A DNA stretch of 64,000 bases from Nitrosopumilus sp. GTDB taxonomy: Archaea > Thermoproteota > Nitrososphaeria > Nitrososphaerales > Nitrosopumilaceae. Positions 2,648 to 17,508 of the stretch are shown here, in pieces. The notes under the pieces were generated by a model, which ran no database searches, was not told the DNA's origin, and saw nothing but the letters and a program-made list of their open reading frames with translations. Position 1 is the stretch's first letter. Every line of letters begins with the position of its first letter. The position numbers and the translations under genes are program-made. The stretch lies in assembly GCA_965207075.1 (NCBI GenBank), contig CBDBLO010000002.1, forward strand, positions 192,001 to 256,000, read 5' to 3'.

Positions 2648-4330
2648 CTACGGCGCCATGCGGCGTAGCCTCCTCACGGTTACAATGACCGCCGCGGAGG
2701 GCGCCGCGACGTACAGTCCGGCGTTGAGCAGGATGACAGCAGAGCCGTACGCGATTACGTCCAAGTCCGAGCCCGCCTCCGCCGCGCCCAGTATGGAGAG
2801 CGAGGATATCATGGGCGTGATGAACGCCCTTACCGCATCCCTGAACGCGGGATGTTCGCGCTCGAGGTCCGCCACGGCGGGCGAGAATGAATAGTATACG
2901 GCATTGAATCCCGACATGAACGCCGCACCGGAGCTGGTGGACATGACGGTGCCGTCCCTCAGTTCGCGCATGGACTGTATCTGGGGCTCAAGTTCGGAGC
3001 CAAACGCCGCAGTCGCGACAAGGCACCCCCCGCCCTCAGGGTCGGCCGGGGCGGCGTCAGACTGTTCCTGCGGCGGCGGTGATGGGTCGGCCGGGGTCGG
3101 GTCGGCCGGGGTCGGGTCGGCAGTCGGCGGCGCTTCCTCCTTTACCGCAAACGTCTCCAGCATCCTCTGATAATGCGGCATCATGTCATCAAACCTTTCG
3201 GGGATGTTGGCGTATGACAGGGTATAGTACTGCCCGTCCCCGTACACGATGGTCTCAATGAGCGAGACCTTGGCGGTCACGTTGTTCAGTGTTATGGTCT
3301 CGGTCACCCGCATGGCGTGGGCCGGCAGGCCCGCCACTACGGTCGGCTCCTGCTCAAACGTCGCAAAGTCCTCGGCGCTCAGCACCTCACGGATCTCCGC
3401 CGTTCGGTCACTGACTAGCTGCTCCAGCGTGGACTGGCCCGCGTCGTTCACAAACACGTAGATCTGTGGGGTTCCCCCGGCGGCCCGCGGCCCCACCGCA
3501 ACGACGTCGGGCACTTCGGGATCCGAACGCCCCGGTTCCTGCAAGAGCCAGCCGGCGGGAGCTACAAACGTGATGCCAAGGCGGGAGCTGTCATAGATCT
3601 GCTCGCCGGAGTCGGTGGGGGCAAGTGGGTCCTGCGCCGGCTGCTGCGGAACAGGCGGCGGAACCGGCTCGTCGGGCAGCGACGCAATGGTGGAGCGGTC
3701 CACCGTGCGTATGCTCTGGATTCTCACGGACTCGGGGTCGACGGGCCTGTCCTGGGCTCCCGTCTCCGTTGCCGCGATGGCGTCGAGTGTCTCGAAGCTC
3801 TGCTCCGTTACGATCCTCCCAAACACGGTGTACTGCCCGTCAAGAAAGTTAGAGTTCTGATGGACTATGAAGAACTGCGACCCGGCGCTGTTGGGATCCT
3901 GGCTCCTTGCCATCGAGACTATGCCGCGGTCGTGCGGTATGTTGTTGAACTCGGCGTCCACGGAGTGCGGGGGGCCTCCGATCCCCCACGTGCGGGGGTC
4001 GCCATCGACCGTGTTGGGATCCCCGCCCTGTATCATAAACCCGGGTATGATCCTGTGAAACAGCGTGCCGTCATAAAAGCCGGACTCTGCCAGGGTGACA
4101 AAGTTGGACACGTGGTTGGGGGCTGCTGCCGGAAAGAATTCAATTATGATCGTGCCCATCTGCGTCTCCAGTACCGCCACCCTGCCGTCGGCCTCCGCAA
4201 CCTGGGCGTAGGCCTCCGCAGTGGCCTCTGCAAAAGGCAGTGCCGACGGCGCATGCAGCAGCGCCAAGCAGCAGACGGCAGCCAAGGCGGCGCACGCGAC
4301 AGGCGCCCGTAAAATTCCAGTATTTTTCAT
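2648..4330 (-). CDS. Secreted cyclophilin-type peptidyl-prolyl isomerase with PsbP-like middle domain and CFI-box-CTERM C-terminus
   Basis: Signal peptide; FHRIIPGFMIQGGDP, SMARSQDPNSAGSQFFI, YTVFG; GGGCLVATAAFGSEL...NAVYYSFSP followed by a TM helix. Start approximate. Confidence 0.88.
   Translation of the reverse strand: MKNTGILRAPVACAALAAVCCLALLHAPSALPFAEATAEAYAQVAEADGRVAVLETQMGTIIIEFFPAAAPNHVSNFVTLAESGFYDGTLFHRIIPGFMIQGGDPNTVDGDPRTWGIGGPPHSVDAEFNNIPHDRGIVSMARSQDPNSAGSQFFIVHQNSNFLDGQYTVFGRIVTEQSFETLDAIAATETGAQDRPVDPESVRIQSIRTVDRSTIASLPDEPVPPPVPQQPAQDPLAPTDSGEQIYDSSRLGITFVAPAGWLLQEPGRSDPEVPDVVAVGPRAAGGTPQIYVFVNDAGQSTLEQLVSDRTAEIREVLSAEDFATFEQEPTVVAGLPAHAMRVTETITLNNVTAKVSLIETIVYGDGQYYTLSYANIPERFDDMMPHYQRMLETFAVKEEAPPTADPTPADPTPADPSPPPQEQSDAAPADPEGGGCLVATAAFGSELEPQIQSMRELRDGTVMSTSSGAAFMSGFNAVYYSFSPAVADLEREHPAFRDAVRAFITPMISSLSILGAAEAGSDLDVIAYGSAVILLNAGLYVAAPSAAVIVTVRRLRRMAP
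3083..3120. repeat. 15-bp tandem repeat encoding the ADPTP linker
   Basis: GGGTCGGCCGGGGTC about 2.5 copies. Confidence 0.8.
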
Positions 4331-4446
4331 GTACAACAACGGATCGACACCCGCCTCCATAAAAGCCGTTGTCTGGCGGCGGCTACGGCAAAAACCACGG
4401 CAGGCGCCGCACTCTATTTATAAAAAGCCAGAGTTCCTGCCAAAGC

Positions 4447-4941
4447 ATGGGTCCCGACGAGAAGATTCACGCGCACCTAGTCTCGATATGGAGGGAGTCA
4501 CAGGGGCTCTTCGCGCTGGGGGGCAAGGAGGGGATGCTCTTTCTTACCGACAGACACATTGCGTTTGTACACAAGACGGGGGCCAGCATGAACTGGTGGA
4601 AGGCGATAACGCAGAGGCAGGTTGTAAAGTTCATCAGGTCGAAAAACACCATGATCCGACACGACGGCTACGGCGAGGACGACCTGGCCGACGACCTGGC
4701 CGACGACAGGAACGTGGAGGTTCCGTACGAGGATGTCGTGGGGATCAGCAGCGGGGAGAAGGCGTGGGGCAGCGTCCTGCACCTAGAACACCGCGCCGGC
4801 GACAAAAGGGAGAAGCACCAGTACTCTGTCGCGCAGGACTGGGTCAAGTACCCCGCAAAGGAGCCCACCAAGTACATGAAGGTAGACTGGGAGCCGTTTG
4901 TGGAGTTTGTAAACAAGAGGCGGCGGCAGCTGACGACGTAG
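4447..4941 (+). CDS. Conserved hypothetical protein (PH/GRAM-like)
   Basis: GMLFLTDRHIAF strand pattern; TTTATAAA upstream supports ATG at 4447. Confidence 0.65.
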   Translation: MGPDEKIHAHLVSIWRESQGLFALGGKEGMLFLTDRHIAFVHKTGASMNWWKAITQRQVVKFIRSKNTMIRHDGYGEDDLADDLADDRNVEVPYEDVVGISSGEKAWGSVLHLEHRAGDKREKHQYSVAQDWVKYPAKEPTKYMKVDWEPFVEFVNKRRRQLTT

Positions 4942-4947
4942 GGGGGT

Positions 4948-5757
4948 GTGGTCGCCGTGGCAGAGGGACGCGTTTATGCGGTGGGCGTGGGGCCGGGATC
5001 GCCAAGGTATCTGACCGCCATAGCGGAGGAGATCATCAAGGGGTGCGACATCGTGGTGGGGTACGAATACACGCTCAGGACCATACGGCACCTTCTGGGG
5101 CCCGGCAAAACGGTCCACACGGTCACGATGTCAAGCCAAGAGGGGGTGCTGCAGTCAGTCGCCGCCGAACTCAGGGCGGGCGCGGAGGAAAAGACGGTGG
5201 TGGTCCCGTTTACCGGCGACGCAAGCTTTTCAGAATCGGAGGTGGTCGACAGGCTCGCCGAGATATTTGGCGGCGTGCAGATAATACCCGGAATCAGCTC
5301 GGTGCAGGTGGCGGCCGCCATGGCGGGGGTGCCGCTTGACAAGTCAAGGGTCATTACCATGCACGTGACGTCTCCCATAGAGGGCAAAAAGGAGGAGATG
5401 CGCCAGGCGCTGGCGTCGGGGCTGAGCGTGGTTCTCATCCCGCGGCCCTGGCCCAAGAGGCCGGACAAGCACTTCATGCCGTCGGAGGTGGCGGCGCACC
5501 TCAGAGAGCACGGCTTTGACACAGGCGCCATGCGTGTAAGCGTCTTTGAATCCCTTACCACCGAGCAGCAGACTAGGTTTGACGGAACCGTAAGTGAGCT
5601 TGAGGGCAAGGAGTTCTCCGACCTGTGCGTGGTGGTGTTCAACCAGTCAGAACCAGACTCTTACATGAACTACAGGTGGCAGTGGGACGACGGCTGCGGC
5701 GGGCATGGCAACGATGAGGGCGGGCGGGGCGTCCCCGGGGGACAGGGGGACGCGTGA
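4948..5757 (+). CDS. cbiE: Precorrin-6Y/cobalt-precorrin-7 C5-methyltransferase
   Basis: VGVGPGSPRYLT, TGDASFS, IIPGISSVQVAAA, FESLT motifs. Confidence 0.82.
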   Translation: MVAVAEGRVYAVGVGPGSPRYLTAIAEEIIKGCDIVVGYEYTLRTIRHLLGPGKTVHTVTMSSQEGVLQSVAAELRAGAEEKTVVVPFTGDASFSESEVVDRLAEIFGGVQIIPGISSVQVAAAMAGVPLDKSRVITMHVTSPIEGKKEEMRQALASGLSVVLIPRPWPKRPDKHFMPSEVAAHLREHGFDTGAMRVSVFESLTTEQQTRFDGTVSELEGKEFSDLCVVVFNQSEPDSYMNYRWQWDDGCGGHGNDEGGRGVPGGQGDA

Positions 5758-5796
5758 CGGAGCCTGCTGCAGTAGTGCGGCCGGCTACGGCGGCGG

Positions 5797-6327
5797 CTAG
5801 CGGAACCCCACATCCAGAGACTCCTCTATCATAAAGAACTCTACGTAGCCGCCTGCCAGCAGAAGCGCCACCACAATGCCCGCCTCCAAGAGCAGCGGGC
5901 GGAGGTGCCCCGACAGGGCAGCCCTCCTTACAATCGTAATCGTCATCAGTACGCTCCTCGACATTGCCAGCGAGTACGCGCAGATCTCCATCAGCCCGAA
6001 CGGGGTGAGGAACAGCACGGCCAGGGGCGACACCCCCTCAAGCTCCGGCATGCTGGTCTCCAAGGCCGCAAACACCAGCCCGGTGGACCAAGCGGACAGG
6101 AACCCCCACGCCAACCCGGCGCCCGGAACAAACATGAGCAGCGCGATCATGGTGTTGTGCAGAAATATCCCAAACGCGTCTATGTCCTCCACCAATGCCT
6201 CGAACTCGGACAGCAGCGCCTCGGCCTCGGCGTCGGAAACGTCAGACGTGGTACCCAGCACGAACACGGCGGTAAAGGCGGCAAGCAGGGCAAGGAACGC
6301 CGCAGTCCTGGCCGGGATCCTCTCCAT
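5797..6327 (-). CDS. SpoIIM-family membrane protein
   Basis: IFLHNT, PFGLMEI and AGYVE motifs within several TM helices. Confidence 0.75.
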   Translation of the reverse strand: MERIPARTAAFLALLAAFTAVFVLGTTSDVSDAEAEALLSEFEALVEDIDAFGIFLHNTMIALLMFVPGAGLAWGFLSAWSTGLVFAALETSMPELEGVSPLAVLFLTPFGLMEICAYSLAMSRSVLMTITIVRRAALSGHLRPLLLEAGIVVALLLAGGYVEFFMIEESLDVGFR

Positions 6328-6444
6328 GGTTCGGCCCGGAGAGCTTTCTATTTGTTGTTTGGCAAAACGGCCGGAGGCGACGGCACAACGGCACGCCGCT
6401 CCGGCGGGGACAGATTAATTATCGGCACCAGCAGTTATTCTGCA

Positions 6445-7872
6445 ATGGGGTGGGATCGCAAGGACGCGCTGGGGTATGCGCTGAGCAGGGGCGTCCAGGT
6501 AAGCCCCCGCGCCTTTGAGATCCTAAGGAGCGTCCCGTCGGACTCGCTTGAGGGTGTGGTCAAGGCAATGGTGCACGCGGCCAAAAGGGAGTCCCGGACC
6601 CAGATGACGGCAGACGATCTTGAGGAGCACTTGGGCCTCAGGGTGGACACCGAGGTGGACGCGGACCTCAGGGTGCTGTCGGATCCCACGGGGCACACCA
6701 CCACGGCCGAGGGGGTCGACGGGTACGGCGCCCTCTTCGCCAGCAGGTATGAAAAGTTAAAGTCCATAATCGCTGCCAGGCCCGAGTCCAAAAAGGTCAA
6801 GTCCGTGGAGTCCGTCAGGAGATCGGGCGGCGTAAAGGACGACGAGGATGCCTACGTGGCGGGACTAATCAACGATAGGGAGGTCAGGGACAGCAGGGCC
6901 GAGATCCTCTTGGAGGATCCCTCGGGAGTGCTGTCCATACCCGTGTACAACGAGGAGCTGCAGAAGGAGGCCGGCTCCCTGATGCGGGACCAGATGGCAA
7001 TGGTGAGGCTGGGAAGGGGCAAGAGGGGCGTCTTTGCCAAGGAGATCATCCTGCCCGACACCCCGGCCCACGTGCCCAACAGGTCGGAGACGGGCGCCTG
7101 GGCGGCCCTGATCTCCGACCTTCACGTCGGCTCGAAATACTTCATGGAGGAGGAGTTCAGGGGGTTTGTGGGCTGGCTCTCGGAGGCGGACGCGGTCGCA
7201 AGGAACGTGCGGTTCGTCCTGATATGCGGCGACGTGGTCGACGGGGTGGGGATCTACAAGGACCAGGACAAGGAGTTGGAGATGGACACTGTCGAGGAGC
7301 AGCTGGGGCGCCTCGAGGAGATGCTTGCCGAGATACCGGAGCGCGTCAAGATCATAATATCCCCCGGAAACCACGACCCCGGAAGAAGGGCCCTGCCCCA
7401 GCCGGCAATACCAGAAAAGTACTGCCCGGGGCTGTGGCGCCGCGAGAACATAACCATGGTCGGAAACCCCGCCGTGGTTTCGCTCAACGGCGTCAGGGTC
7501 CTGATGTTCCACGGGCAGTCGATCGACGACATAGTCAGGGTCACGCCGGGCCTCAGTTACGACGAGCCCATTGCGGTAATGGAGCTCCTGCTAAGGGCGC
7601 GGCACCTGAGCCCCATATACGGGGAGAGGACGCCCATTGCCCCCGAGCTTGAGGACTGGATGGTCATAGGGGACGACATCGACATATTCCACGCGGGGCA
7701 CGTGCACAGGTGGGCAGTCAGCAAGTACAGAGGCACCCTGCTCGTCAACTCGGGAGCCTGGCAGCGCCAGACGCCGTTCCAGGCCAGCGTCGGCATAGTA
7801 CCCAACCCGGGGATTGCCGCACTGGTCAACCTCAAAACGTACGAGCTCAAGAGCCAGAACTACAACGGATAG
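6445..7872 (+). CDS. polB: DNA polymerase D small subunit DP1 (proofreading exonuclease)
   Basis: SDLHVGS, GDVVDGVGIY, PGNHD, FHGQS, GHVH phosphoesterase motifs. True start probably ATG 6445, not 5905. Confidence 0.95.
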   Translation: MGWDRKDALGYALSRGVQVSPRAFEILRSVPSDSLEGVVKAMVHAAKRESRTQMTADDLEEHLGLRVDTEVDADLRVLSDPTGHTTTAEGVDGYGALFASRYEKLKSIIAARPESKKVKSVESVRRSGGVKDDEDAYVAGLINDREVRDSRAEILLEDPSGVLSIPVYNEELQKEAGSLMRDQMAMVRLGRGKRGVFAKEIILPDTPAHVPNRSETGAWAALISDLHVGSKYFMEEEFRGFVGWLSEADAVARNVRFVLICGDVVDGVGIYKDQDKELEMDTVEEQLGRLEEMLAEIPERVKIIISPGNHDPGRRALPQPAIPEKYCPGLWRRENITMVGNPAVVSLNGVRVLMFHGQSIDDIVRVTPGLSYDEPIAVMELLLRARHLSPIYGERTPIAPELEDWMVIGDDIDIFHAGHVHRWAVSKYRGTLLVNSGAWQRQTPFQASVGIVPNPGIAALVNLKTYELKSQNYNG

Positions 7873-7876
7873 CGGA

Positions 7877-9100
7877 TCAGAGCAGCCCCTGCAGGGCCAG
7901 ATCCTCGGCAAACGCCTTTTTCACCGTCTGGGGCGAGACCGTCAGCCTGTGCTTCTTGGTCCTGCCGTGCACGCCCCGGCTTGCCACCCTGCCGGATACG
8001 ATGCCCGACAGCTCTATCTCGCTCAGCATCTGCGTCACGCGGCGCTGCGTGAGCGGGCCTGCCGCCACGTCCCTGCACAGGGACTTGTAGTGCGAGTAGA
8101 CCTCGCCGGTGGAGCTGGCCTCGCTCCTCATTATCGCGAGTATCAGTAGTTTCTCGTGGAGTGGGTACGACTGCAGCACGGTCATCTCCTTGTCCTCCTC
8201 CATCTTCTTTGAGGCCTCCCTTACGTGCTCGACCGTTACGGTCTGGCTGTCGGTGCCGCTGCCGCCTGCCGCCCTCTCGGCAATCTCGCCTGCAATTCGC
8301 AGCAGGTCTATCGCCCGCCTTGCGTCGCCGTGCTCCGAGCCCGACAGGGCCGCGCACAGGTTCAGCGCCGGTTCCTCCACCGCGCCGGGGGCAAAGGCCG
8401 CCGCGACCCTCTCCTCCAGTATCTTCCTGATCTGCTCCGTGGTGTAGGTGGTAAAGACGGCCTCCTCGTCGGCCAGCCTGCTTATTACGCGCGGATCAAG
8501 GTTCTCCTTGAACGAGAGGTTGTTTGATATGCCCACTATGGTAAGGGTGCCACGGTCCAGCCTCATGTTGGCGCTGGTCAGCTGGTACAGGATGTCCTTG
8601 CCCGTCCTGCCCACAAGCTGCGCCAGGTGGTCGATCTCGTCTATCACGAACACGACGTTCAGCCCGCGCCCGTCGACCTCTTCAAGTATCCGCTTGAACA
8701 CCTCCCCTATGGCCAGTCCCGTAACGGGAAGCCTCTTCTGGTCCATCCCGAGCTGCTTGCCCAAGCTCACAAGCAGCCCGCCCAGCGTCGTCTCATCCTT
8801 TGCGTTGGTGTAGACGAGACGTATTGGGAACTTGGAGTCTGCCGCGCGTGCCTGGATTTGGGATATCACCTTGCGAACCACGAGCGTCTTGCCCGTCCCC
8901 GGCTTGCCGTACACAAGTAGGTTGGAGGGCCTCGAGCCCTTTAGTATCGGGATCAGCACCTGGGCCACGGCCTTCTGCTCCTCGTCCCTGTGCAGTACCA
9001 GATCCGGCATGTGCGCGGAATGTAGCACGGCCCTGTCCACGATTATGGACCTGCCGCCTGCAACTGCATCAAGGAGGCTGTCAACCGGATCACTTGCCAT
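7877..9100 (-). CDS. cdc6: Orc1/Cdc6 replication initiator
   Basis: Walker A GKPGTGKT, Walker B IDEID, GDARRAIDLLR, C-terminal winged helix. Start ATG 9100; the longer ORF extension runs through the origin. Confidence 0.95.
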   Translation of the reverse strand: MASDPVDSLLDAVAGGRSIIVDRAVLHSAHMPDLVLHRDEEQKAVAQVLIPILKGSRPSNLLVYGKPGTGKTLVVRKVISQIQARAADSKFPIRLVYTNAKDETTLGGLLVSLGKQLGMDQKRLPVTGLAIGEVFKRILEEVDGRGLNVVFVIDEIDHLAQLVGRTGKDILYQLTSANMRLDRGTLTIVGISNNLSFKENLDPRVISRLADEEAVFTTYTTEQIRKILEERVAAAFAPGAVEEPALNLCAALSGSEHGDARRAIDLLRIAGEIAERAAGGSGTDSQTVTVEHVREASKKMEEDKEMTVLQSYPLHEKLLILAIMRSEASSTGEVYSHYKSLCRDVAAGPLTQRRVTQMLSEIELSGIVSGRVASRGVHGRTKKHRLTVSPQTVKKAFAEDLALQGLL

Positions 9101-9570
9101 GTTGGTTCCACTCACACACCATGATTTCCACTCCAGCATATAACATACAGTATACGGCCCGGTGTGTAGTGTGTGGTGTAGTAGTGTAGTGTGATGTAGT
9201 ATGTAAGCTCCTTTTTGAAAAATTTTAGAAGGTGTGGAGTGGAAATGAAGGTGTGTGGGTCTGCCGGCTGGTAGTGGGACTGGTAGGGGAACAGCGGCGG
9301 TTCCTGCCTGCCCATTCACAACTGTTAGCGTGCTGTTAAGGTACTGCCAAAAGAGGTCGGAATCGACCCCTTCATTTCCACTCCAAGCGTCAAGATCCAC
9401 CTTAACACTGTCAACATACTGGAATCGACCCCTTCATTTCCACTCCAGTCATGGAATCGACCCACCCCGGACCACACCCCGGCTCCAGAGTGTTAGGATC
9501 CGCCCCTCTGGCTAGGCACGGGCTAGGCGTGCCAGCTTAACACACACGTTACTTAACACACACTGCATGC
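9101..9570. other. Chromosomal replication origin (oriC) with ORB elements
   Basis: ORB-like TGGAGTGGAAAT(GAAGGGG) copies at 9124-9136 (-), 9235-9255 (+), 9359-9385 (-) and 9421-9447 (-), directly upstream of cdc6. Confidence 0.9.
9359..9447 (-). repeat. Two identical 27-bp ORB repeats
   Basis: GGAATCGACCCCTTCATTTCCACTCCA at 9359-9385 and 9421-9447; a partial third copy GGAATCGACCC at 9453-9463. Confidence 0.92.
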
Positions 9571-9607
9571 GCATGCTAATATACTGATATTGTGAGCAAT
9601 GCTTTGC

Positions 9608-10009
9608 ATGGTCAAGAAACGCATCAGGATAGACGTTGAGGACGCCGACGGCGCCAAGTATGACATCAAGCTGGAGGGCAACATCACCCTTGAGAAGATC
9701 CGGATGGTCTTTGAGGCCATGAACATGGCGGACATAGAGGCAGGGAGCGGCAGCCAGAACCACCCAGAACCACCCAACATGGACTCTACCGGAGCCAAGA
9801 TCTGGCACGCCGTAGACAAGTACTTCTCACTGGGCAAGTTCACGTCGACTGACGTGCTTGAAAAGTACGAGGACGAGTTCAACGAGCCGATCAAACTGAG
9901 CGTGATATCGACGTACCTCTCAAGGTTCTCTGCAAGGGGCAGGCTTGACAGGGTCCGGACAGGCAGGGAATGGACCTATCAGACCAACAAGATCGCCCAG
10001 CAGCACTGA
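9608..10009 (+). CDS. Hypothetical protein with C-terminal winged-helix domain
   Basis: FTSTDVLEKY...LSVISTYLSRFSARGRLDRVRTGREWTY resembles a wHTH recognition helix plus wing. Confidence 0.75.
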   Translation: MVKKRIRIDVEDADGAKYDIKLEGNITLEKIRMVFEAMNMADIEAGSGSQNHPEPPNMDSTGAKIWHAVDKYFSLGKFTSTDVLEKYEDEFNEPIKLSVISTYLSRFSARGRLDRVRTGREWTYQTNKIAQQH

Positions 10010-10165
10010 CTACGATATGACTGCCTTACGTACAATCAACTCGTTGTTCTGATACGTTATCTTGACGTATTCCCCCTTTTGCATGTCCATGTATCTTCTA
10101 AACTGCCTTGGTATGGATATCGCCCCCGCCGAGGTGATCTTTACCAGCGCCTCGTTCTCCCGCAT
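10010..10165 (-). CDS. AbrB/MazE/SpoVT-family DNA-binding protein (51 aa)
   Basis: Not in ORF track. MRENEALVKITSAGAISIPRQFRRYMDMQKGEYVKITYQNNELIVRKAVIS fits the swapped-hairpin AbrB pattern. Confidence 0.88.
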   Translation of the reverse strand: MRENEALVKITSAGAISIPRQFRRYMDMQKGEYVKITYQNNELIVRKAVIS

Positions 10166-10412
10166 GGGTGTTTCACTGCATATTATAATATATAATTTTC
10201 TTAATTTACACTAAATATTCTATAATAGAAGAAATAATGAATTTCCATATTCATTGTAAATATAATATCTGAAGCAATCCTGCCGCGCAACCGGCTGCGC
10301 CCGGACAAGACGCGCCCAGCGGTTCCAGGACCCGATGCATCCAGCCCTCCCCACGGCAGTCCTTGGGGCTTGGTGCAGAACGGAGCCCCTTAGCGCAGGT
10401 GGCATGAAAAGA

Positions 10413-11078
10413 TCAGTCACCGGCCCCACCCTGTCGAAGTCTTTCCAGGCCCTTCTGGGTCACGCTGTAACTGTACGGCCTGGTGTCCTCGTCACGCTGG
10501 AGATATCCATCCTCATACATCTTTTTCAAGAGTCGTGATGTATGCTCCCTGCTCTTCCCCATCGTGACTTGTATATCACGTGATGTTATGATATCATTCG
10601 TGATTAAATGCAATACATAGTCAACGGGGTTGGGATAGGCACGGAACTCCGTCTTGGGCACGGTTTCTCCGTCGCCGCCCGCGAGATCCTCCCCCCGCCC
10701 TTCTGCATGCAGCTCTTCTGCCGCCACGCCCTCTTCCTCCGCCGCCACCGCGGCGGCGGCCGCCGGCTCCCTGGACACCAATTCGCTCAGGGCTGCCGCC
10801 AGCTTGGACACGGCCTCGTCCCCACTGCCGTCTCCCGCCCTGGCAGCCTCCCCACGTCCCATCTCCACCGCATCTAGGCGTATCTTTAGGTCTATGAGCT
10901 GCCTTTCATAGTATTCGAGGCGCTCCGAGCCGGTGATCTCGCCACTCTTGCTCCCGAGACCGGACTCTCTGGCCATGGTGCGCAGCCAAAAGTATGCAAA
11001 GAGGGCCAGCAGCCCCGCCAAAAATGCAACCGCAATGCTAATTGCCACCCACGGATCAAAAACCTCCTCCGCCATCAC
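10413..11078 (-). CDS. Membrane-anchored winged-helix DNA-binding protein
   Basis: N-terminal TM helix, coiled coil (YERQLIDLKIRLDAVE), acidic linker, C-terminal wHTH (TSRDIQVTMGKSREHTSRLLKKMYEDGYLQRD..RPYSYSVTQKG). Confidence 0.82.
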   Translation of the reverse strand: MMAEEVFDPWVAISIAVAFLAGLLALFAYFWLRTMARESGLGSKSGEITGSERLEYYERQLIDLKIRLDAVEMGRGEAARAGDGSGDEAVSKLAAALSELVSREPAAAAAVAAEEEGVAAEELHAEGRGEDLAGGDGETVPKTEFRAYPNPVDYVLHLITNDIITSRDIQVTMGKSREHTSRLLKKMYEDGYLQRDEDTRPYSYSVTQKGLERLRQGGAGD

Positions 11079-11199
11079 GGTATATCATATGTACTGTGAT
11101 ATATCATATTCGGTCAGTATTTTTTCACACCACATGTTAAAAAAATCACCCATCTGCAACAGCTTGGACTGCCAAGACCAGGCCATTCGTCACTGTACA

Positions 11200-11562
11200 T
11201 CACATACTGCATGCCTGCCGTATGTACTTTTCAATCACATCAATCATCTGTTCAGCACTTTCAGGCTGTATATCACCACTGTTTATCACGTCAACCCTCT
11301 CTGCAAGGTCCATCATCACGTCCACATCGTCAGGCAGGAGTATCCCCAACCCCCTTAGAACGACCACCGTATAGAAGAGAGCGACCAGCTTGTCCCTCGA
11401 TTGGCCTACCTGCCTGTAGTATGCCCCCCGGCTTATGGGAAACCTAGCCTCCAAGAGTTCCCGCTGGTTTAAAATAATTTCAATTTGTCTCTCTGTAAAC
11501 AGTGATTTTTCAATCATTTTCTGTATAACTTTGTTGAAAATCGGTCTTTTGGATTCACTCAT
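11200..11562 (-). CDS. Conserved hypothetical protein, HTH-like
   Basis: LFTERQIEII...ISRGAYYRQVGQSRDKL resembles a sigma-4/LuxR-like HTH. Start ATG 11562. Confidence 0.7.
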   Translation of the reverse strand: MSESKRPIFNKVIQKMIEKSLFTERQIEIILNQRELLEARFPISRGAYYRQVGQSRDKLVALFYTVVVLRGLGILLPDDVDVMMDLAERVDVINSGDIQPESAEQMIDVIEKYIRQACSM

Positions 11563-11625
11563 AGCTATACAAACTTGTATACGGCGTAAATTAAACTTTA
11601 AAGTAAAGGGGCTGCCACGCAATGC

Positions 11626-12447
11626 GTGGCCGCAGACACGGAAGAGAAGATAGGCAAGGGCCAGGTAGAGGGCTATCTGCAGTCGGAGCTGAGGAACAGG
11701 GGAACGCTGCTCTTTGTCTTGATAGACTCCGAGGTGTCGGACACCGACGAGTCGGCACGCCTGGTCCGTGCGGCCGAGTCGGCAGGCGCCTCTGCGATAC
11801 TGGTGGGCGGCTCCTCCGCGACGGATCAGATGGAGCTGTCCGTCGTGACCGGCGAGATTAAGAAGAGCACGCAGCGGATACCGGTCATCCTGTTTCCCGG
11901 AAACGTGACGGGAGTCGTGCCCAGCGCCGACGCCATACTGTTCAGCTCGCTCTTAAACTCGGAGAATCCGTACTTTGTGACGCAGGCCCAGGCACTGGGG
12001 GCCCCCTCGGTGGCAAAGTTCGGGCTCGAACCCCTGCCCACCGCATACCTGGTTATAGGGGAGGGAACCACGGCCTGGTTTGTTGGGGGCGCGCGGGGCA
12101 TACCACACGACAAGCCCAAGATAGCGGCGGCCTACTCGCTGGCCGCACAGTTTCTGGGCATGCGGTTTGTATACCTGGAGGCGGGCTCCGGCGCAAAGAC
12201 CAGCGTGTCGCCTGAGATGGTCAGGACGGTGCGCAAGGCCTTTGGCGGCTTTCTGATTGTCGGCGGCGGCATCAGGGATGCCGGAACGGCGGCCGCGCTG
12301 GCGGATGCGGGGGCAGACGCCCTCGTGGTGGGAACCCTGGTCGAGGGTGGCGACTCGGCGGAGGGCGAGCGGAGGCTTGGGGAGATTACCGGCGCGATTG
12401 GCGGCAGCCGCAGCGGCAGCCGCAGCGACGGAACGGGTGGCCCGTGA
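11626..12447 (+). CDS. Geranylgeranylglyceryl phosphate synthase
   Basis: LIDS, LVGGS, ILFPG, YLEAGSGA, VGGGIR motifs. Confidence 0.93.
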   Translation: MAADTEEKIGKGQVEGYLQSELRNRGTLLFVLIDSEVSDTDESARLVRAAESAGASAILVGGSSATDQMELSVVTGEIKKSTQRIPVILFPGNVTGVVPSADAILFSSLLNSENPYFVTQAQALGAPSVAKFGLEPLPTAYLVIGEGTTAWFVGGARGIPHDKPKIAAAYSLAAQFLGMRFVYLEAGSGAKTSVSPEMVRTVRKAFGGFLIVGGGIRDAGTAAALADAGADALVVGTLVEGGDSAEGERRLGEITGAIGGSRSGSRSDGTGGP

Positions 12448-15400
12448 TTGGCCGCAGATCCTCCTGAGACCCCCGCAATGATGACCCTGGACGACGTCGG
12501 CTACAGGCTGCAGGGCATAGAGATGCCAGAGGCATACCGGGACTACTATACGCGGCTCTCAAAGGAGACTGCGAGGGTCCTCGAGTGGGCCTCGGCCGCC
12601 AAGAAGGGCAGCAGGGCGGACTCCGACGACGTGATAGGGCCCAAGATCGCCTTTGATCTGGCGGATCGCGTCTCAAAGATGCACGAGATTGAGATCGCCG
12701 AGCCGCTGCGGGAGCTGCTTGCAGGCAACGGCAAGGAACTCTCCGCGCTCTTGCTCTCAAGGGATATAGCGCTGGGCAAGTATCACAGGGAGGGCGCCCC
12801 CCTCGAGGAGAGGATCGACCTGGCAGTCCGGGTGGGGCTTGCCGTGGTTACGGAGGGGGTCACCATGGCCCCGCTTGAGGGCATCAGCGCCGTATCCATA
12901 AAGAAGAACCGCGACGGCACGAGCTACCTCTCAGTCTCCATAGCGGGGCCCATGCGCGCAGCGGGCGGCACCGAGTCGGCCGTTACCATGCTTATCGCGG
13001 ACCACGTGCGCAAGGCAGTCGGGCTTGACAGGTACCAGGCCGAGTCGTACGACGACGAGCCGGGCAGGTTCGTAGAGGAGCTCAGGGTCTATGAGAGGGA
13101 CGGGCTGGGATTTCAGTACCACGTCCACGACGAGGACATAGAGCACACGATACGGAACCTGCCAGTCGAGCTGGACGGGGTGGACACGGACGATTTTGAG
13201 GTGGTAAACCACCGTAACATGACTAGGATCAAGACCGAGAAGGTCCGCGGAGGGGCCCTGCGCGTGCTCAACGACGGCCTGATCGGCAGGTCCAAGAAGC
13301 TTCTCAAACGCATAGAGCTCTACAAGCTTGACGGATGGGAATGGCTGGCCGAACTCAAGGGAGCCGTGCAGCCGGGGGACGGGAGCGCGGGCGGCAGCGA
13401 CAGCGACAACGCCTATGACGACAAGGAGGACGCCGGCGCAAAGAGGATGCGGGAGGTGCTCACCGGGCGCTCCGTGCTCTCCATGCCGGGCAGGCCCGGC
13501 GGATTCAGGCTGCGGTACGGGCGGGCGTGCAACACGGGCTTTGCGGCAGTCGGGTTTCACCCGGTGATTGCGGAGATTCTGGATCATACCATAGCAGTCG
13601 GCACCCAGGTCAAGACGGACATGCCGGGCAAGGGGGCGTCGGTCGCATTCGTAGACTCGATAGAGACGCCCACGGTCCGGCTCGCGGACGGCAGCGTGGT
13701 CAAGATTAGGGACACGGAGCACGGGATCATGGTAAAGGGGCAGATCGCCGAGATTCTGCACCTCGGCGACGTCTTGATCTCGTTTGGCGACTTTATAGAG
13801 AACAACGCCAAGCTGGAGCCGTCCGGCTACGTGGGGGAGATCTGGACCGAGGAGCTGAGGAGGCTGCTGCAGCGGGAGCAGGAACGGGGGCAGACGCCTG
13901 ACGGGCCCGTCTCCGGGAAGATACGACATCTTGAGGAGTTTCTGCTCAGGGACCCCACGGTTGACGAGGCCATCTCGCTGTCACTCGAGTTTGGGCTGGC
14001 CCTGCATCCCAGATACCTGCACTTCTGGGACGAGCTCCGGCCCGCGGAGCTCGGGGCGCTCTTGGAACCCGACGCGGCATCCGAGTCCGAGATTGCCTAC
14101 GGCAACGCCTACAGCGACGGTATTGTGAAGAAGGCGCTTGAAAAGGCGGGCGTGCCGCACGAGTTTGTTGCCGCCGACGGCGACGGACATGCCGGGCAAG
14201 GGGGCGGCGGCCCCGGTGCCGCCGCCGTTCGCCATGGAAAAGACGGCCCCGGCGACAACGGCAGCGACGCCTTGCCCGCAGCCAAAAACGGAGACTTTGA
14301 GTTCGTCCCGGCTCCAAGATCCCCGCCCGCACTCGGCACCGTACTGTTGAGGGGCGCCGAGGCCAAGATCCTCTACAACCTCCTGCTCAAGAGGCCGCCC
14401 CGGATTGATGCCCCCGGCGCCACCGTCCTTGACATACTCTCAGGTTCGGGCATTGCCGTCAGGAAAAAGTCGTCGGCGTGCATAGGCATACGTATAGGCA
14501 GGCCCGAAAAGGCCGCCGCCCGGGCGATGTCCCCCCCGACCCACCTGCTGTTCCCGGTGGGCGAGGGGGGCGGTTCCACCAGGGACGTCATAAAGGCGTC
14601 CAGGGCCTCCGACCGCTTCTACGCCGACCTGTGCAACAGGCGCTGCCCCGACTGCGGCGCCGTCACGCTGGGCTTGGCGTGCCCCGACTGCGGCACAAGG
14701 TCGGTGGAGACCAGGCGCTGCGCGCGATGCGGCGCGTCGACTGACCTGGAGGAGTGCGACCGGTGCGGGCGCAGGACCGTCCTGTATGCAAACCTGGAGT
14801 TTCCCCTGCGGGCCCAGCTGCTCAAGGCCCAGGAGCGCATGGAACTGCGGGCGCAGGAGCCGCTCAAGGGGGTCAAGGGGCTTGCAGGGACGGACAAGCT
14901 GGCCGAGCCCATCGAGAAGGGGCTGCTGCGCCAGGGGTTCGGGCTGACCGTCTTCAAGGACGGGACGGTGCGCTTTGACGCGACGAACTCCCCGCTTACC
15001 CACTTCAAGCCCTCCTGGATAGGCACCCCCGTCCAGAAGCTGCGCGAACTCGGCTACACGCGCGACATGGACGGCAGGCCGCTCACCGACCCGGACCAGC
15101 TGGTAGAGATGCGCATGCAGGACGTAATCATACCGTACGAGAGCGGCCGCTACCTCTTGGCCGCGGCCAAGTACGTCGACGCGCTGCTCTCAAAGTTTCA
15201 CGGCGCAGAGCCGTACTACAAAGCCAGGGCCGTGGAGGACATGGCGGGGCATCTGGTCATAGGGCTCGCGCCGCACACGTCAGTCGGCATAGTGGGCAGA
15301 ATCATCGGGTTTGCCGAGACGCACGTGTGCTTTGCAACCCCCAACTGGCACTCTGCCAAGCGGCGGGACGCCGACGGCGACGCGGACTCCATCATGCTGC

Positions 15401-16119
15401 TGATGGACTGCCTGCTGAACTTCTCAAAGGCGTTCCTGTCGGGGAGGATAGGCGGACTGATGGACGCGCCGCTCCTGGTCCAGCCCCTCGTACTGCCCCA
15501 CGAGTCGCAGCCGCAGGCGCACAACCTGGAGGTCGCACGGTCCTTCCCGCTCGAGTTCTTCGAGTCGGCCGCACGCAGGGAAAAGGCCGGCAGCGTCGAC
15601 TCCGTCGAGATCATAAAGTCGAGGCTGGACACGGAGAGGCAGTTTTACGACTATCTATTCACCCACGAGACGTCCACCCTGACCACGTCAAGGTCGCGCA
15701 GCGCGTACTCCGTGCTGGGCTCCATGCTCAACAAGCTTGACCTGCAGCTGAAGAACGCGGAGATGATCAGGGCAGTCAGCCCGGACGAGACTGCCCTGAA
15801 CGTCATAACGACCCACCTGCTGCCGGACATGGCCGGCAACCTGAGGGCGTACGCAAGGCAGGAGTTCCGCTGCACCGAATGCGGCACGCGGTTCAGGCGC
15901 ATCCCGCTGACGCGCAAGTGCGCCCAGTGCGGGGTAAGGCTGACGCCCAACATAACGAGGCCGGGCGTGGAAAAGTACCTGATGCTTGCAAAGAGCCTGG
16001 CCAAAAGGTACGACATCGGGAGCTACAACCGCGGAAGGATAGCCCTGCTTGCCGACGAGATCTCGATGGTCTTCGGCAAGAGCAAGGGGGATCAGCTCAT
16101 GCTCAGCGACTACATGTGA
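12448..16119 (+). CDS. polC: DNA polymerase D large subunit DP2
   Basis: TEGV, AGGTESA, GGFRLRYGR, GRPEKA, FKDGTVRFD, KRRDADGDAD catalytic motif, zinc fingers. Confidence 0.96.
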   Translation: MAADPPETPAMMTLDDVGYRLQGIEMPEAYRDYYTRLSKETARVLEWASAAKKGSRADSDDVIGPKIAFDLADRVSKMHEIEIAEPLRELLAGNGKELSALLLSRDIALGKYHREGAPLEERIDLAVRVGLAVVTEGVTMAPLEGISAVSIKKNRDGTSYLSVSIAGPMRAAGGTESAVTMLIADHVRKAVGLDRYQAESYDDEPGRFVEELRVYERDGLGFQYHVHDEDIEHTIRNLPVELDGVDTDDFEVVNHRNMTRIKTEKVRGGALRVLNDGLIGRSKKLLKRIELYKLDGWEWLAELKGAVQPGDGSAGGSDSDNAYDDKEDAGAKRMREVLTGRSVLSMPGRPGGFRLRYGRACNTGFAAVGFHPVIAEILDHTIAVGTQVKTDMPGKGASVAFVDSIETPTVRLADGSVVKIRDTEHGIMVKGQIAEILHLGDVLISFGDFIENNAKLEPSGYVGEIWTEELRRLLQREQERGQTPDGPVSGKIRHLEEFLLRDPTVDEAISLSLEFGLALHPRYLHFWDELRPAELGALLEPDAASESEIAYGNAYSDGIVKKALEKAGVPHEFVAADGDGHAGQGGGGPGAAAVRHGKDGPGDNGSDALPAAKNGDFEFVPAPRSPPALGTVLLRGAEAKILYNLLLKRPPRIDAPGATVLDILSGSGIAVRKKSSACIGIRIGRPEKAAARAMSPPTHLLFPVGEGGGSTRDVIKASRASDRFYADLCNRRCPDCGAVTLGLACPDCGTRSVETRRCARCGASTDLEECDRCGRRTVLYANLEFPLRAQLLKAQERMELRAQEPLKGVKGLAGTDKLAEPIEKGLLRQGFGLTVFKDGTVRFDATNSPLTHFKPSWIGTPVQKLRELGYTRDMDGRPLTDPDQLVEMRMQDVIIPYESGRYLLAAAKYVDALLSKFHGAEPYYKARAVEDMAGHLVIGLAPHTSVGIVGRIIGFAETHVCFATPNWHSAKRRDADGDADSIMLLMDCLLNFSKAFLSGRIGGLMDAPLLVQPLVLPHESQPQAHNLEVARSFPLEFFESAARREKAGSVDSVEIIKSRLDTERQFYDYLFTHETSTLTTSRSRSAYSVLGSMLNKLDLQLKNAEMIRAVSPDETALNVITTHLLPDMAGNLRAYARQEFRCTECGTRFRRIPLTRKCAQCGVRLTPNITRPGVEKYLMLAKSLAKRYDIGSYNRGRIALLADEISMVFGKSKGDQLMLSDYM

Positions 16120-16164
16120 GATGCAAACACGCGGCAGCCTGCAAGCTGCCCGTGCGGACGGCAG

Positions 16165-17508
16165 TCACCTGAGCCTGACGTACTCGTAGGCCCCGCGCCG
16201 CGCCCCGTCAGGAAAGCAGAACCTTACGGTCTGGTAGCCCTTTCTGAGCGCCCTTGCCTTTCTGAGTATGCTCTTGGGATCCTTCCCGTTGATTACCACC
16301 TGCCGTATCAGGGACGCGATCTCGGCCATCTCGGCCTCCTTCATGCCGAGCCTCGTCACCTCTGAGACGCCCAGCCTTATGCCCCCCGGACGGAAGTAGT
16401 TGCGCTTTGCCTTGATGTCTCCGGGTATGAGCTGCCTGTTCACTATGATGTTGGCCCTCTCCAGGTCGGCCTCGACCCGCCCGCCGTCCGAGTACTTTAG
16501 GACGTCGAGCGCGATCTGGTGCGACTTGGTAAAGCCCCTCGACTCGCCCAGCACCCTGAACCCCTCGGCGCTCAGGGCCTCTGCCAGGACCTTTGCGTTC
16601 CTTATCACCTGGGCGGCGTATTTTTTGCCGAACTCCAGGGCCTCGGCAAACGCCACGGCCTTGCCTGCCATGTTGTTGATGTGGTGGCTGCTTGTCAGGC
16701 CCGGGAACACCGCCTTTTTTATCGCCTCCTCGTGCTCCGCGGCGCCCAGCACGAGGCCGCCCTGGGGGCCGAACAGGGTCTTGTGCGTGCTCATCGTCAT
16801 GGTGTCCGCCCCCTCCCTGAGGGGGTCCTGGAACTTGGAGCCGGCGATGAGCCCGGCCACGTGGGCCGCGTCGTAGTTTATGTGCATGCCGTACCCCTTT
16901 AGAAAGTCCGCCAGCTCCTTTACGGGGTGTGGAAACAGAAAGAGCGAGCCGCCAAACATTGCTATCTTGGGCCTGCTGCCCTTCGCGGCCCTCTTTGAGG
17001 CGAGCTTCCTGACGCGCCTCTTGGTCTCGTCCACGTCTATCGTCATCTCCTGCGCGTCAAACGGGTAGAACTCTATCTCAAGCCCGTGCACCAGTCCCGC
17101 CGTGCCGGAGTGGTCCCTCTTGCCGTGCGAGATGTGTCCGCCGGCCGGTATCGAGGGCGCAAGCATGGTGTCCCCGGGATCCGAGAATGCAGAGTACACG
17201 GCCAGGTTCGCGACCACGCCCGATATGGGGCGCACGTCTGCAAACTTGGCCCTGAACAGCCTCTTTGCAAGGCCCATGCACTGCACCTCGACCTCGTCTA
17301 TCTTGGTGCATCCGGCATAGACCCGCTCGCCGGGCCAGCCCTCCGCATAGCGGTTTCCAAAGTCGGTTGCGATCGCCTCCCGGACAGCCGGACTCGGGAT
17401 GTTCTCGCTTGCTATGAGTGGAATCGACTCGGCAAACCACTTGTGGTGCTCCTTCAGCCTTGCAAATATCATGTTGTATGAGTCCCGGTTTCTGGACTTG
17501 CCCGCCAT
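16165..17508 (-). CDS. glyA: Serine hydroxymethyltransferase
   Basis: LIASEN, RYAEGWPGERVYAGC, STHKTLFGPQGG. Confidence 0.96.
   Translation of the reverse strand: MAGKSRNRDSYNMIFARLKEHHKWFAESIPLIASENIPSPAVREAIATDFGNRYAEGWPGERVYAGCTKIDEVEVQCMGLAKRLFRAKFADVRPISGVVANLAVYSAFSDPGDTMLAPSIPAGGHISHGKRDHSGTAGLVHGLEIEFYPFDAQEMTIDVDETKRRVRKLASKRAAKGSRPKIAMFGGSLFLFPHPVKELADFLKGYGMHINYDAAHVAGLIAGSKFQDPLREGADTMTMSTHKTLFGPQGGLVLGAAEHEEAIKKAVFPGLTSSHHINNMAGKAVAFAEALEFGKKYAAQVIRNAKVLAEALSAEGFRVLGESRGFTKSHQIALDVLKYSDGGRVEADLERANIIVNRQLIPGDIKAKRNYFRPGGIRLGVSEVTRLGMKEAEMAEIASLIRQVVINGKDPKSILRKARALRKGYQTVRFCFPDGARRGAYEYVRLR

Follow-up and report, generated by a model that had tools for sequence, protein, structure and literature searches.

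Few microbes on Earth are as abundant as the ammonia-oxidising archaea, and a locus beside the replication origin of one of them, a Nitrosopumilus species, raises the question of whether such a cell could hold its origin region at the membrane by means of a protein that is encoded next to the origin itself. The window analysed here, a stretch of 64,000 nucleotides, covers positions 192,001-256,000 of a 2.23-Mb genome of ~60% GC. In it, four small genes, called A, B, C and D in the following, lie between the initiator gene cdc6 with the origin oriC on one side and GGGPS on the other. The original prediction had taken the four for a DNA-binding module in which C, a winged helix-turn-helix (wHTH) protein with a transmembrane (TM) helix, binds origin-proximal repeats and anchors oriC to the membrane. 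We examine this proposal by means of motif statistics, comparisons with related genomes, profile searches and structure predictions. The central observation is an array of GTGAT/ATCAC sites lying over C and D. That C is a self-targeting, membrane-anchored DNA binder that pins origin-flanking DNA to the membrane is the reading that we put first, tentatively and with less than even confidence.

In the excerpted text of an archaeal cell-cycle review (PMC7617429), only SegAB is named for chromosome segregation, and nothing for ammonia-oxidising archaea. A published description of the module or the array was not found in the full-text literature, subscription-only papers being outside this scope, and a search for the motif strings returned unrelated primers only. 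The excerpts of an ESCRT survey (PMC11188069) contain no mention of such a protein.

The GTGAT array and the gene it accompanies

The array runs over the wHTH codons and the start of C, the spacer between D and C, and the 3' half of D (see Table 1 for all coordinates). Between 10166 and 11625, GTGAT or ATCAC occurs 14 times, compared with a mean of 2.9 in dinucleotide shuffles, and none of 1000 shuffles reaches 14. The motif array that had been claimed over C and D is thus real. It is important to point out that the word was picked after viewing the sequence; against the window background it ranks second of 461 pentamers. The stretch 10933-11315 is the densest 400-nt GTGAT cluster of the genome, with 9 copies, the next best having 7. 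The site matrix gives T-GTGAT-[AT]-T as the extended half-site, and palindromes of the TGTGATAT(AT)CACA kind are found in the C promoter of several families. The word TATATCA is present in 3 copies, compared with 0.07 in shuffles. Since the exact palindrome of the C promoter, TGATATATCA, is unique in the genome, this locus would be the main target of C. The exact 12-mer GTGATATATCAC has no copy in the window genome, and GTGATATCAC has two genomic copies, both away from the locus.

The same sites recur in relatives. The 120 nt upstream of C carry 64 GTGAT half-sites in 21 genomes, where 7.0 are expected, and at least one is present in 20 of them. Around the C start, the density in 12 genus genomes is 2.4-3.6 per 100 nt from -500 to +300, compared with a baseline of ~0.2, and in nine genomes of other families it reaches 3.1 per 100 nt just 5' of C, compared with ~0.25. 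All of the 70 Nitrosopumilaceae loci that could be scored have 7-15 sites (median 11) per 400 nt near the C start, the flanks having 0.64. Matches to a triple GTGAT pattern fall at the locus in 8 of 15 and 7 of 11 cases in two complete genus genomes, and in 3 of 14 in one complete genome of another family.

Could the array be a by-product of protein sequence, codon usage and lower local GC, with no function as DNA? The coding-sequence sites of the window do fall on recurring peptides (TSR twice, IT, and DV[IM] three times), and the stretch is AT-richer than its surroundings. The shuffles speak against this explanation, as do the counts in the non-coding spacer, and also a codon test: in low-GC genus genomes, Val-Ile/Met is written as GTG-AT in 62 of 74 cases within C and D but in 66 of 308 in the neighbouring genes, an odds ratio of 19, although the p-value of this test is overstated because the genomes are related. 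In other families, moreover, array sites also fall in the unconserved linker of C. We therefore regard the by-product explanation as hardly tenable, and as largely refuted by the shuffles, the spacer counts and the codon test. In five high-GC genomes the motif columns are identical in 67 of 70 cases, compared with 957 of 1190 for the other columns. On this sequence evidence, the array is conserved and selected as DNA, even inside codons.

A separate observation concerns positions 10470-10545, which are minus-strand codons at the start of the wHTH of C. This stretch of ~75 nt has 100% DNA identity in five high-GC genomes, the C proteins of which are 84-94% identical overall, and it holds four GTGAT/ATCAC copies, including the palindrome ATCACGTGAT.

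For the gene order, 20-kb stretches around the C homologue were compared in 20 genomes, 11 of them from the same genus and nine from other families within the order. In all 20, Cdc6, C and GGGPS occur together; A is present in 19 and D in 18, the misses of A and D being by tblastn only, and the expected conservation beside the origin is thereby borne out. In four complete genomes the cluster straddles the opening point of the circular record. We also considered the best 80 related loci, all of them named and all from Nitrosopumilaceae, counting only loci with room on the relevant side; D and GGGPS are then present in 75/75 each, and A and Cdc6 in 70/70 each. The nearest named relatives of the window genome are metagenome-assembled genomes among these 80, the closest having a C protein of 94% identity. 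In a further comparison, C was found in 38 of 41 relatives. Phylum-wide, C occurs in 168 and A in 198 of 301 genomes, with a broad but incomplete overlap, some families having A only and some C only. Of 20 distant families, 11 have Cdc6 less than 4 kb from C, 13 have A directly next to C, and 12 have D less than 1 kb away. Two distant lineages have a bare D-C operon. In two families A stands alone, at four loci that lack a Cdc6 gene up to 10 kb away, and in lineage L149, where C was not found, it adjoins Cdc6-DP1.

These comparisons leave A, C and D as the core of the proposed four-gene module, judged by gene content, but not B. The latter is a 51-residue AbrB/SpoVT-type protein, whose AbrB/SpoVT-MazE swapped-hairpin domain is matched by two family models above their curated cut-offs (PF04014, 31 bits vs 24.7, 2.4e-7; TIGR01439, 33.6 vs 28.3, 2.3e-8). 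No toxin gene is present beside it in the window gene list. Of the 11 genus genomes 9 have B, as do 69 of 70 Nitrosopumilaceae loci, but it was found in none of the nine genomes of other families; by this distribution it is a late family-level insertion between A and C, outside the core module.

The distant lineages also indicate which gene the array accompanies. At the C start of lineages in which A or Cdc6 is not close by, ATCAC still ranks first or nearly first among the enriched pentamers (11 vs 0.5 in L045, 9 vs 1.4 in L048, and 9 vs 1.8 in L064). It is enriched in L050, L054 and L060 too, and TCACA in four more distant lineages. Six out of six loci with A but not C are devoid of the array, one of these being a Cdc6-A locus. 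From its occurrence, then, the array follows C, and mostly D too, not A or Cdc6. Together with the near-invariant recognition helix of C, described below, this makes C the best candidate for the binder, with D as the alternative.

Proteins C, A and D

Protein C has 221 residues, or 220 if it starts from the ATG at 11075. It consists of an acidic N-terminus, a predicted TM helix at ~10-32, a coiled coil of three heptads at ~52-72, a linker at 76-148 (~70 residues, rich in Ala/Glu/Gly) and the wHTH at 155-210, with ~10 residues remaining after the wing. There is one hydrophobic stretch, residues 10-32, with a Kyte-Doolittle value of 2.47. It is preceded by only ~9 residues, with a charge of -3 at the N-terminus, and followed by Arg33 and Arg37. 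Hydropathy, together with the positive-inside rule, argues for an N-out/C-in topology and not for a cleaved signal peptide. By hydropathy, a DNA-binding domain joined to a TM helix is thus found in C as foreseen, and the hydrophobic N-terminus is kept across the order (16/16 aligned orthologues).

Among 20 more distant homologues of C, the N-terminal hydrophobic helix is present in 12, and the other 8 consist of the coiled coil and the wHTH only. The helix goes with Cdc6 adjacency: 10 of the 12 TM-bearing homologues are located by Cdc6, compared with 1 of the 8 TM-less ones (Fisher p 0.0045, not corrected for phylogeny). It can also be observed that the TM-less C of five lineages (L046, L047, L056, L061 and L062) has a long N-terminal coiled coil and adjoins A, not near Cdc6. 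This soluble branch could be used as a natural control.

The wHTH matches HTH_27 (PF13463) with 23.7 bits, compared with a cut-off of 22.2 (5.7e-5, residues 155-210), and the models MarR_2 and MarR score it below their cut-offs. Most of the listed C homologues carry a precomputed PF13463, and the public names of the protein are 'winged helix DNA-binding protein' or 'MarR family'. In the recognition helix, R177, E178, H179, R182 and K185 are invariant across 16 orthologues, as would suit a conserved target. Dimerisation is putatively assigned to the coiled coil. Apart from this short coiled coil and the low-complexity linker, Pfam gives no domain between the TM helix and the wHTH, and a sensor domain, outside or at the membrane, was not found. 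A profile of C gives E 0.13 against a ParB chain, over 42 residues of the HTH, and none of A, B, C and D matches a ParB family at E up to 0.1 in Pfam or NCBIfam. A complex prediction of C (45-221) with D scored 0.00 in both runs, which has no bearing on binding either way.

Protein A, of 133 residues, is composed of an N-terminal beta-beta-alpha unit (of low confidence), a linker and a C-terminal wHTH. The gene is transcribed away from oriC and is convergent with C. The AlphaFold model has a pLDDT of 73.6 overall and ~90 over residues 61-126, which form the wHTH, and the top Foldseek matches are wHTH repressors of the ArsR/BlaI/Fur type (E 4e-3). The recognition helix is invariant in 14 orthologues at L97/S101/T102/Y103/L104/R106. 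For A, C and D alike, NCBIfam gives no match above cut-offs, and profile searches against PDB sequences give none below E 0.049.

Upstream of A, TT[AC]ACA repeats (in the form of CTTAACAC at several points) alternate with the origin recognition boxes (ORBs) and extend to the A promoter. Three of the 13 genomic copies of CTTAACAC are found here within 160 nt. Over the 300 nt that precede A, the density of TTAACA in 12 genus genomes is 4.3 per 100 nt, compared with 0.14 overall, and in eight other families TT[AC]ACA occurs at ~2 per 100 nt, compared with 0.16; the form is GTTAACA in the genus and GTTCACA in the other families. These repeats may be sites for A or for another accessory origin factor.

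Protein D, of 120 residues, is all-helical. Its AlphaFold model has five helices (pLDDT 81.2, pTM 0.70), with a modelled HTH-like unit at the N-terminus (helices 11-19, 24-33 and 45-71) and a helical hairpin at the C-terminus (77-117). Residues G46, R50 and Q54 are invariant. VIA comparisons of residues 19-77 with the LuxR-type domain of EsrB (Z 5.8, 59 aligned, a weak likeness) and of D with the archaeal transcription factor 8hno (Z 5.2, 28% identity) give scores that are within the range of common helical arrangements. A Foldseek search against the PDB has no match at E up to 0.001, the best being 1.6. D belongs to no Pfam or NCBIfam family, and a Pfam scan of all 13 D orthologues gives chance-level matches only. 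The ESM Atlas contains 'hypothetical protein' clusters only, and the atlas lead for D is Sigma70_r4, at 0.83. There are 2344 homologues; among the 120 listed, all named ones are 'hypothetical' and none has a Pfam domain. Of the four genes that had each been described as DNA-binding in appearance, A and C hold up as wHTH proteins and B as an AbrB protein, whereas D is only weakly HTH-like; similarly, the proposed structure predictions with Foldseek gave repressor matches for A but for D none at E below 1.

D is encoded upstream of C on the same strand, and in L048 and L053 the two genes form an operon in which they overlap or directly adjoin. The palindrome that precedes the ATG of D is kept as GCTATACA-N4/5-TGTATAGC in genus genomes and in L032, L033, L037 and L038. 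The element TATACA-N4-TGTATA is probably an operator over the transcription start of D, to judge from its position and conservation. The divergent spacer between D and GGGPS is ~63 nt long (11563-11625), and the TATA-like CTTTAAAG within it is placed to serve both genes. We note in addition that TATACAAACTTGTATA, the palindrome immediately preceding the D start codon, has no second copy in the genome.

Tether, regulator or initiation factor

In the favoured reading, tethering by C, the protein would be a bitopic membrane protein with few acidic residues outside, one TM helix and a cytoplasmic wHTH, the latter two being joined by the short dimerising coiled coil and a flexible linker of ~70 residues. 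Dimers of C would load on the GTGAT array. The loaded protein would shut the C promoter and the read-through from D and, being fixed in the membrane, would pin a stretch of origin-flanking chromosome to it. The outcome would be a centromere-like tether without an ATPase of its own. A would probably bind the TT[AC]ACA repeats situated between the ORBs and the A promoter, and D the palindrome over its own transcription start. In the majority of lineages with a retained TM helix, 1-2 kb separate the array from oriC, so that C on the array would hold origin-flanking DNA at the membrane. What we infer from sequence is that C binds the array, inserts into the membrane and acts as a tether, as well as whatever part it may play in segregation or the cell cycle. 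A more far-reaching version, which we judge unlikely, is motor-free positioning or segregation, in which the TM wHTH protein on its centromere-like array fixes each new origin copy to the membrane. The copies would afterwards be moved apart by envelope growth or by the Cdv division site, and A and D would couple the process to origin firing.

A number of observations weigh against tethering by C. The array covers the C and D genes at a distance of 1.1-2.2 kb from the ORBs and is not in oriC; the repeats of the original prediction are near the origin, but outside oriC itself. D-C with the array, or C alone, occurs away from Cdc6 in L048, L053 and L064; the origin link is therefore frequent and conserved in the order, but not obligatory. 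Among the 20 distant lineages, clear ATCAC enrichment is seen in ~6 and TCACA enrichment in ~4 more, while no array enrichment is seen at C in L053, L055, L057, L061 and L063, among others. In the high-GC genome of the window the margin of the densest cluster is modest, at 9 vs 7, and in two complete genomes of other families the triple GTGAT pattern either has no match (G033) or has none of its 10 matches at the locus (G038). As for the anchor, the TM helix call for C is one of hydropathy and charge only, and in L048, L050, L058 and L063 it depends on GTG/TTG starts 5' of the first ATG. Since 8 of 20 distant homologues have no TM helix but retain the coiled coil and the wHTH, the family can work without an anchor. 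Finally, A, C and D each have a candidate operator of their own, which would also fit the simpler reading of three ordinary autoregulators.

That simpler reading, an ordinary cluster of autoregulated transcription factors, is the main rival and a serious one, in our view possible but doubtful. C would be a membrane-tethered regulator of D, of itself and perhaps of the divergent lipid gene GGGPS, with its activity set by proteolytic release or by sensing of the lipid state through the TM helix; the GTGAT sites would give cooperative self-repression, and the closeness to the origin would be inherited. It would account well for the conserved operators at the promoters of A (TT[AC]ACA), C (GTGAT palindromes) and D (TATACA-N4-TGTATA), and for the fact that exact sites are found only at this locus. 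GGGPS is the invariant neighbour on the other side (20/20 and 75/75), D-C with its array occurs also away from Cdc6, and TM-less forms of C exist. Membrane-bound archaeal transcription factors are known as well, ArnR of Sulfolobus being the precedent. On the other hand, 7-15 sites over ~800 nt, many of them codon-preserved inside genes, exceed the usual needs of an operator. C has no outside sensing domain, and the GTGAT array stops short of the D/GGGPS promoter, which bears another palindrome. Nor would one expect from autoregulation that the Cdc6-A-C-D linkage persists over many families while other neighbours shuffle, or that the TM helix accompanies Cdc6 adjacency.

It is also conceivable, although unlikely, that the locus serves the control of initiation, A being an accessory oriC factor while C, D and the array regulate or sequester the origin or Cdc6 without any chromosome movement. 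The TT[AC]ACA repeats among the ORBs, which are enriched ~30-fold in the genus and ~12-fold in other families, would fit this, as would the persistence of A beside Cdc6 in L149. There are precedents too, in the excerpted sources, namely the ucm/UBP pair of Sulfolobus, an accessory non-ORB origin motif with its own binder (PMC12141716), and the haloarchaeal oapABC, a three-gene cluster divergent from the orc gene of the origin (PMC7002104). However, lone A genes are found with no Cdc6 within 10 kb, and the GTGAT array, which is 1-2 kb away from the ORBs, accompanies C and not Cdc6. Both autoregulation and initiation control could be partly true alongside tethering by C.

Quite improbable, in turn, is that D and not C binds the GTGAT array, or that both do so together, in which case C would have another target or act as a membrane partner. 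Half of the array is inside the D gene, D-C is the most compact conserved unit and an operon in L048 and L053, and the conserved HTH residues G46, R50 and Q54 would suit a DNA binder. In L064, however, the array is found at C (9 vs 1.8) with no D within 10 kb, and D has a separate conserved palindrome.

The origin, its neighbours and related systems

The origin core adjoins Cdc6, the start of which was placed near 9100 by alignment with relatives and which is the sole full-length copy in the window genome. Four of the five copies of TTTCCACTCCA in the 2.23-Mb genome are located in the ORB-like elements, and the GC content of the core is 0.52, compared with ~0.62 in the flanks. Between the first and second ORB, imperfect GTGTA/GTAGT tandem repeats (9161-9205) adjoin a T/A-rich run (9215-9232), and the two may form the unwinding region. 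At the locus, the GC skew of the 2.19-Mb contig shows neither a minimum nor a maximum that could be used, so that the origin is called from the ORBs beside cdc6 and from the one mapped origin of N. maritimus, which is stated in a review passage that does not give its position (PMC4010727).

Table 1. Features of the locus, in window coordinates.
Feature	Position	Strand	Remarks
DP1	6448-7872	+	PF04042
Cdc6/Orc1 initiator gene	7877..~9100	-	Cdc6_lid 8.8e-22, Cdc6_C 1.3e-21, AAA domains (Pfam)
oriC core	9110..9447	.	four ORB-like elements around an AT-richer stretch
ORB-like copies	9116-9136, 9235-9254 (inverted), 9359-9385, 9421-9447		repeat families D1, D2, I1-I3
GTGTA-like tandem repeats	9161-9205		within the AT-richer stretch of the oriC core
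TT[AC]ACA repeats	9315..9558	.	TTCACA 9315, TGTTAA 9334, CTTAACAC 9401, 9536, 9552
Gene A	9608-10009	+	wHTH
Gene B	10010-10165	-	AbrB
Gene C	10413-11078	-	predicted TM helix, coiled coil, linker, MarR-like wHTH
GTGAT/ATCAC array	10535..11319	.	13 copies, and an outlier at 11502
Array copies	10535, 10575, 10580, 10600, 10933, 11074, 11096, 11145, 11199, 11234, 11272, 11285, 11315		
D-C spacer / C promoter	11079..11199	-	TATA-like box and probable operator just 5' of the C start codon
TATATCATAT	11081-11090 and 11100-11109		repeat D16, two copies in the C promoter
TGATATATCA	11097-11106		C promoter palindrome, single copy in 2.23 Mb
TGTGATATATCACA			putative target sequence for a C dimer
Gene D	11200-11562	-	all-helical, HTH-like N-terminus
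Palindrome TATACA-N4-TGTATA	11566..11581	.	directly 5' of the ATG of D, unique in the genome
Symmetrical TATA-like CTTTAAAG	11598-11605	.	common to divergent D and GGGPS, D palindrome downstream
GGGPS (PcrB family)	11626-12447	+	PcrB 1.5e-50, divergent from D
DP2	12448-16119	+	PolD gene after GGGPS

The gene order DP1-Cdc6-oriC-A-B-C-D-GGGPS-DP2 is as originally described, and the ends of the module, 9608 and 11562, coincide with the relative-supported starts of A and D. A, B, C and D are each single-copy in the window genome. Two studies provide two sponge metatranscriptome libraries whose contigs, 95-99% alike, span parts of Cdc6, A, C, D and GGGPS; such contigs are not proof of transcription, as DNA carry-over is possible. 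The A region is covered at 9606/9642-9968 by contigs of the two studies. No such contig lies over oriC (9005-9600) or B, and these gaps carry no inference. As a side observation, one contig starts at 9606, two bases 5' of the A start codon, as would fit a leaderless A mRNA, albeit weakly, since contigs do not mark true transcript ends.

Some features of the neighbouring genes were noted in passing. DP2 has a Gly/Ala/Pro-rich insert at residues ~575-630 (window 14130-14330) that is absent from relatives, whose tblastn matches break there; it looks like a low-complexity insertion rather than an intein. At 2648-4360, a protein of 570 residues combines a signal-like N-terminus, a cyclophilin domain (PF00160, 1e-47), a Pro/Thr/Ala-rich linker and a hydrophobic C-terminus, and its position is kept in genus genomes. 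Next to it, at 4369-4941, is a protein of 190 residues with a weak GRAM/PH-like match only (E 0.027), the gene of which adjoins a tetrapyrrole-methylase gene in the 11 same-genus genomes, no copy being found in the order's other families.

How does the module compare with known systems? In bacteria, RacA (with ram sites, held via DivIVA) and Noc (with NBS sites and an amphipathic helix) bring origin-near DNA to the membrane. The likeness consists in a binder of repeated short origin-near sites being held at the membrane, which for C is only predicted. C, however, would be anchored directly by its TM helix, its domain is a MarR-like wHTH and not of MerR or ParB type, and its putative sites are packed into one tight array over the C gene itself, whereas those of RacA and Noc number dozens over hundreds of kb. 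No homology of the module to such tethers was found at E up to 0.1 in Pfam and NCBIfam.

Plasmid and chromosome centromeres that also act as operators are known from ParR/parC, from ParB/parS, with parS inside spo0J, and from SegB, with sites upstream of segAB in Sulfolobus. The arrangement here is similar, in that an array of sites at or inside the gene of the putative binder, near the origin, would serve both self-regulation and DNA positioning. As in ParABS and SegAB, the array is near the origin and at the operon (10535-11319, 1.1-2.2 kb from the ORBs), with binding by a module protein presumed. The module differs in having no ParA, SegA or ParM-type motor gene, a membrane anchor taking the place of the motor, and no sequence relation was found. 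As the original prediction had stated, there is no ParA-type ATPase in the module: by Pfam, no ParA, CbiA or AAA_31-type ATPase is present among 13 proteins from 2648-17508, the rest of the genome not having been searched, and the sole P-loop protein among the 13 is Cdc6.

In ArnR of Sulfolobus and the bacterial ToxR and CadC, an HTH domain is tethered by TM helices and target promoters are bound at the membrane. C resembles them in joining its wHTH to a predicted TM helix. They have sensor domains, located outside or at the membrane, and an N-terminal DNA-binding domain, whereas C has ~9 outside residues and the reverse topology, and a single array at its own locus instead of target promoters elsewhere.

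Two archaeal origin loci offer partial parallels. According to excerpted text (PMC7002104), oapABC is a highly conserved haloarchaeal three-gene cluster of unknown function, located across the main origin from Orc/Cdc6 and divergent from it. A-C-D share this position opposite the Orc/Cdc6 gene of the origin, and the likeness is one of position; oapABC belongs to another phylum, and the excerpts mention neither a site array nor a membrane anchor for it. At oriC1 of Sulfolobus, as excerpted from PMC12141716, the ucm element between the ORBs is bound by the small accessory protein UBP, which is needed for origin function. This is a precedent for the TT[AC]ACA repeats as a non-ORB element with A as its presumed binder. 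UBP, however, is a beta-rich saddle with hundreds of sites, encoded away from the origin, whereas A is a wHTH protein encoded beside it, and no relation between the two was found.

The locus is thus a testable candidate, with three uncharacterised proteins, named sites and a predicted anchor within 2.5 kb of an origin of a mapped type. The array and its binder could serve as plasmid-maintenance parts in organisms without genetic tools. If C is only an autoregulated membrane-bound factor, the conserved Cdc6-A-C-D-GGGPS link would still hint at a coupling between replication and the membrane. Should C indeed tether the array, archaea would have their first membrane tether for an origin region, and centromere systems a variant that works without a motor; if motor-free segregation were also true, the locus would give a direct molecular form to the classic membrane-attachment (replicon) model.

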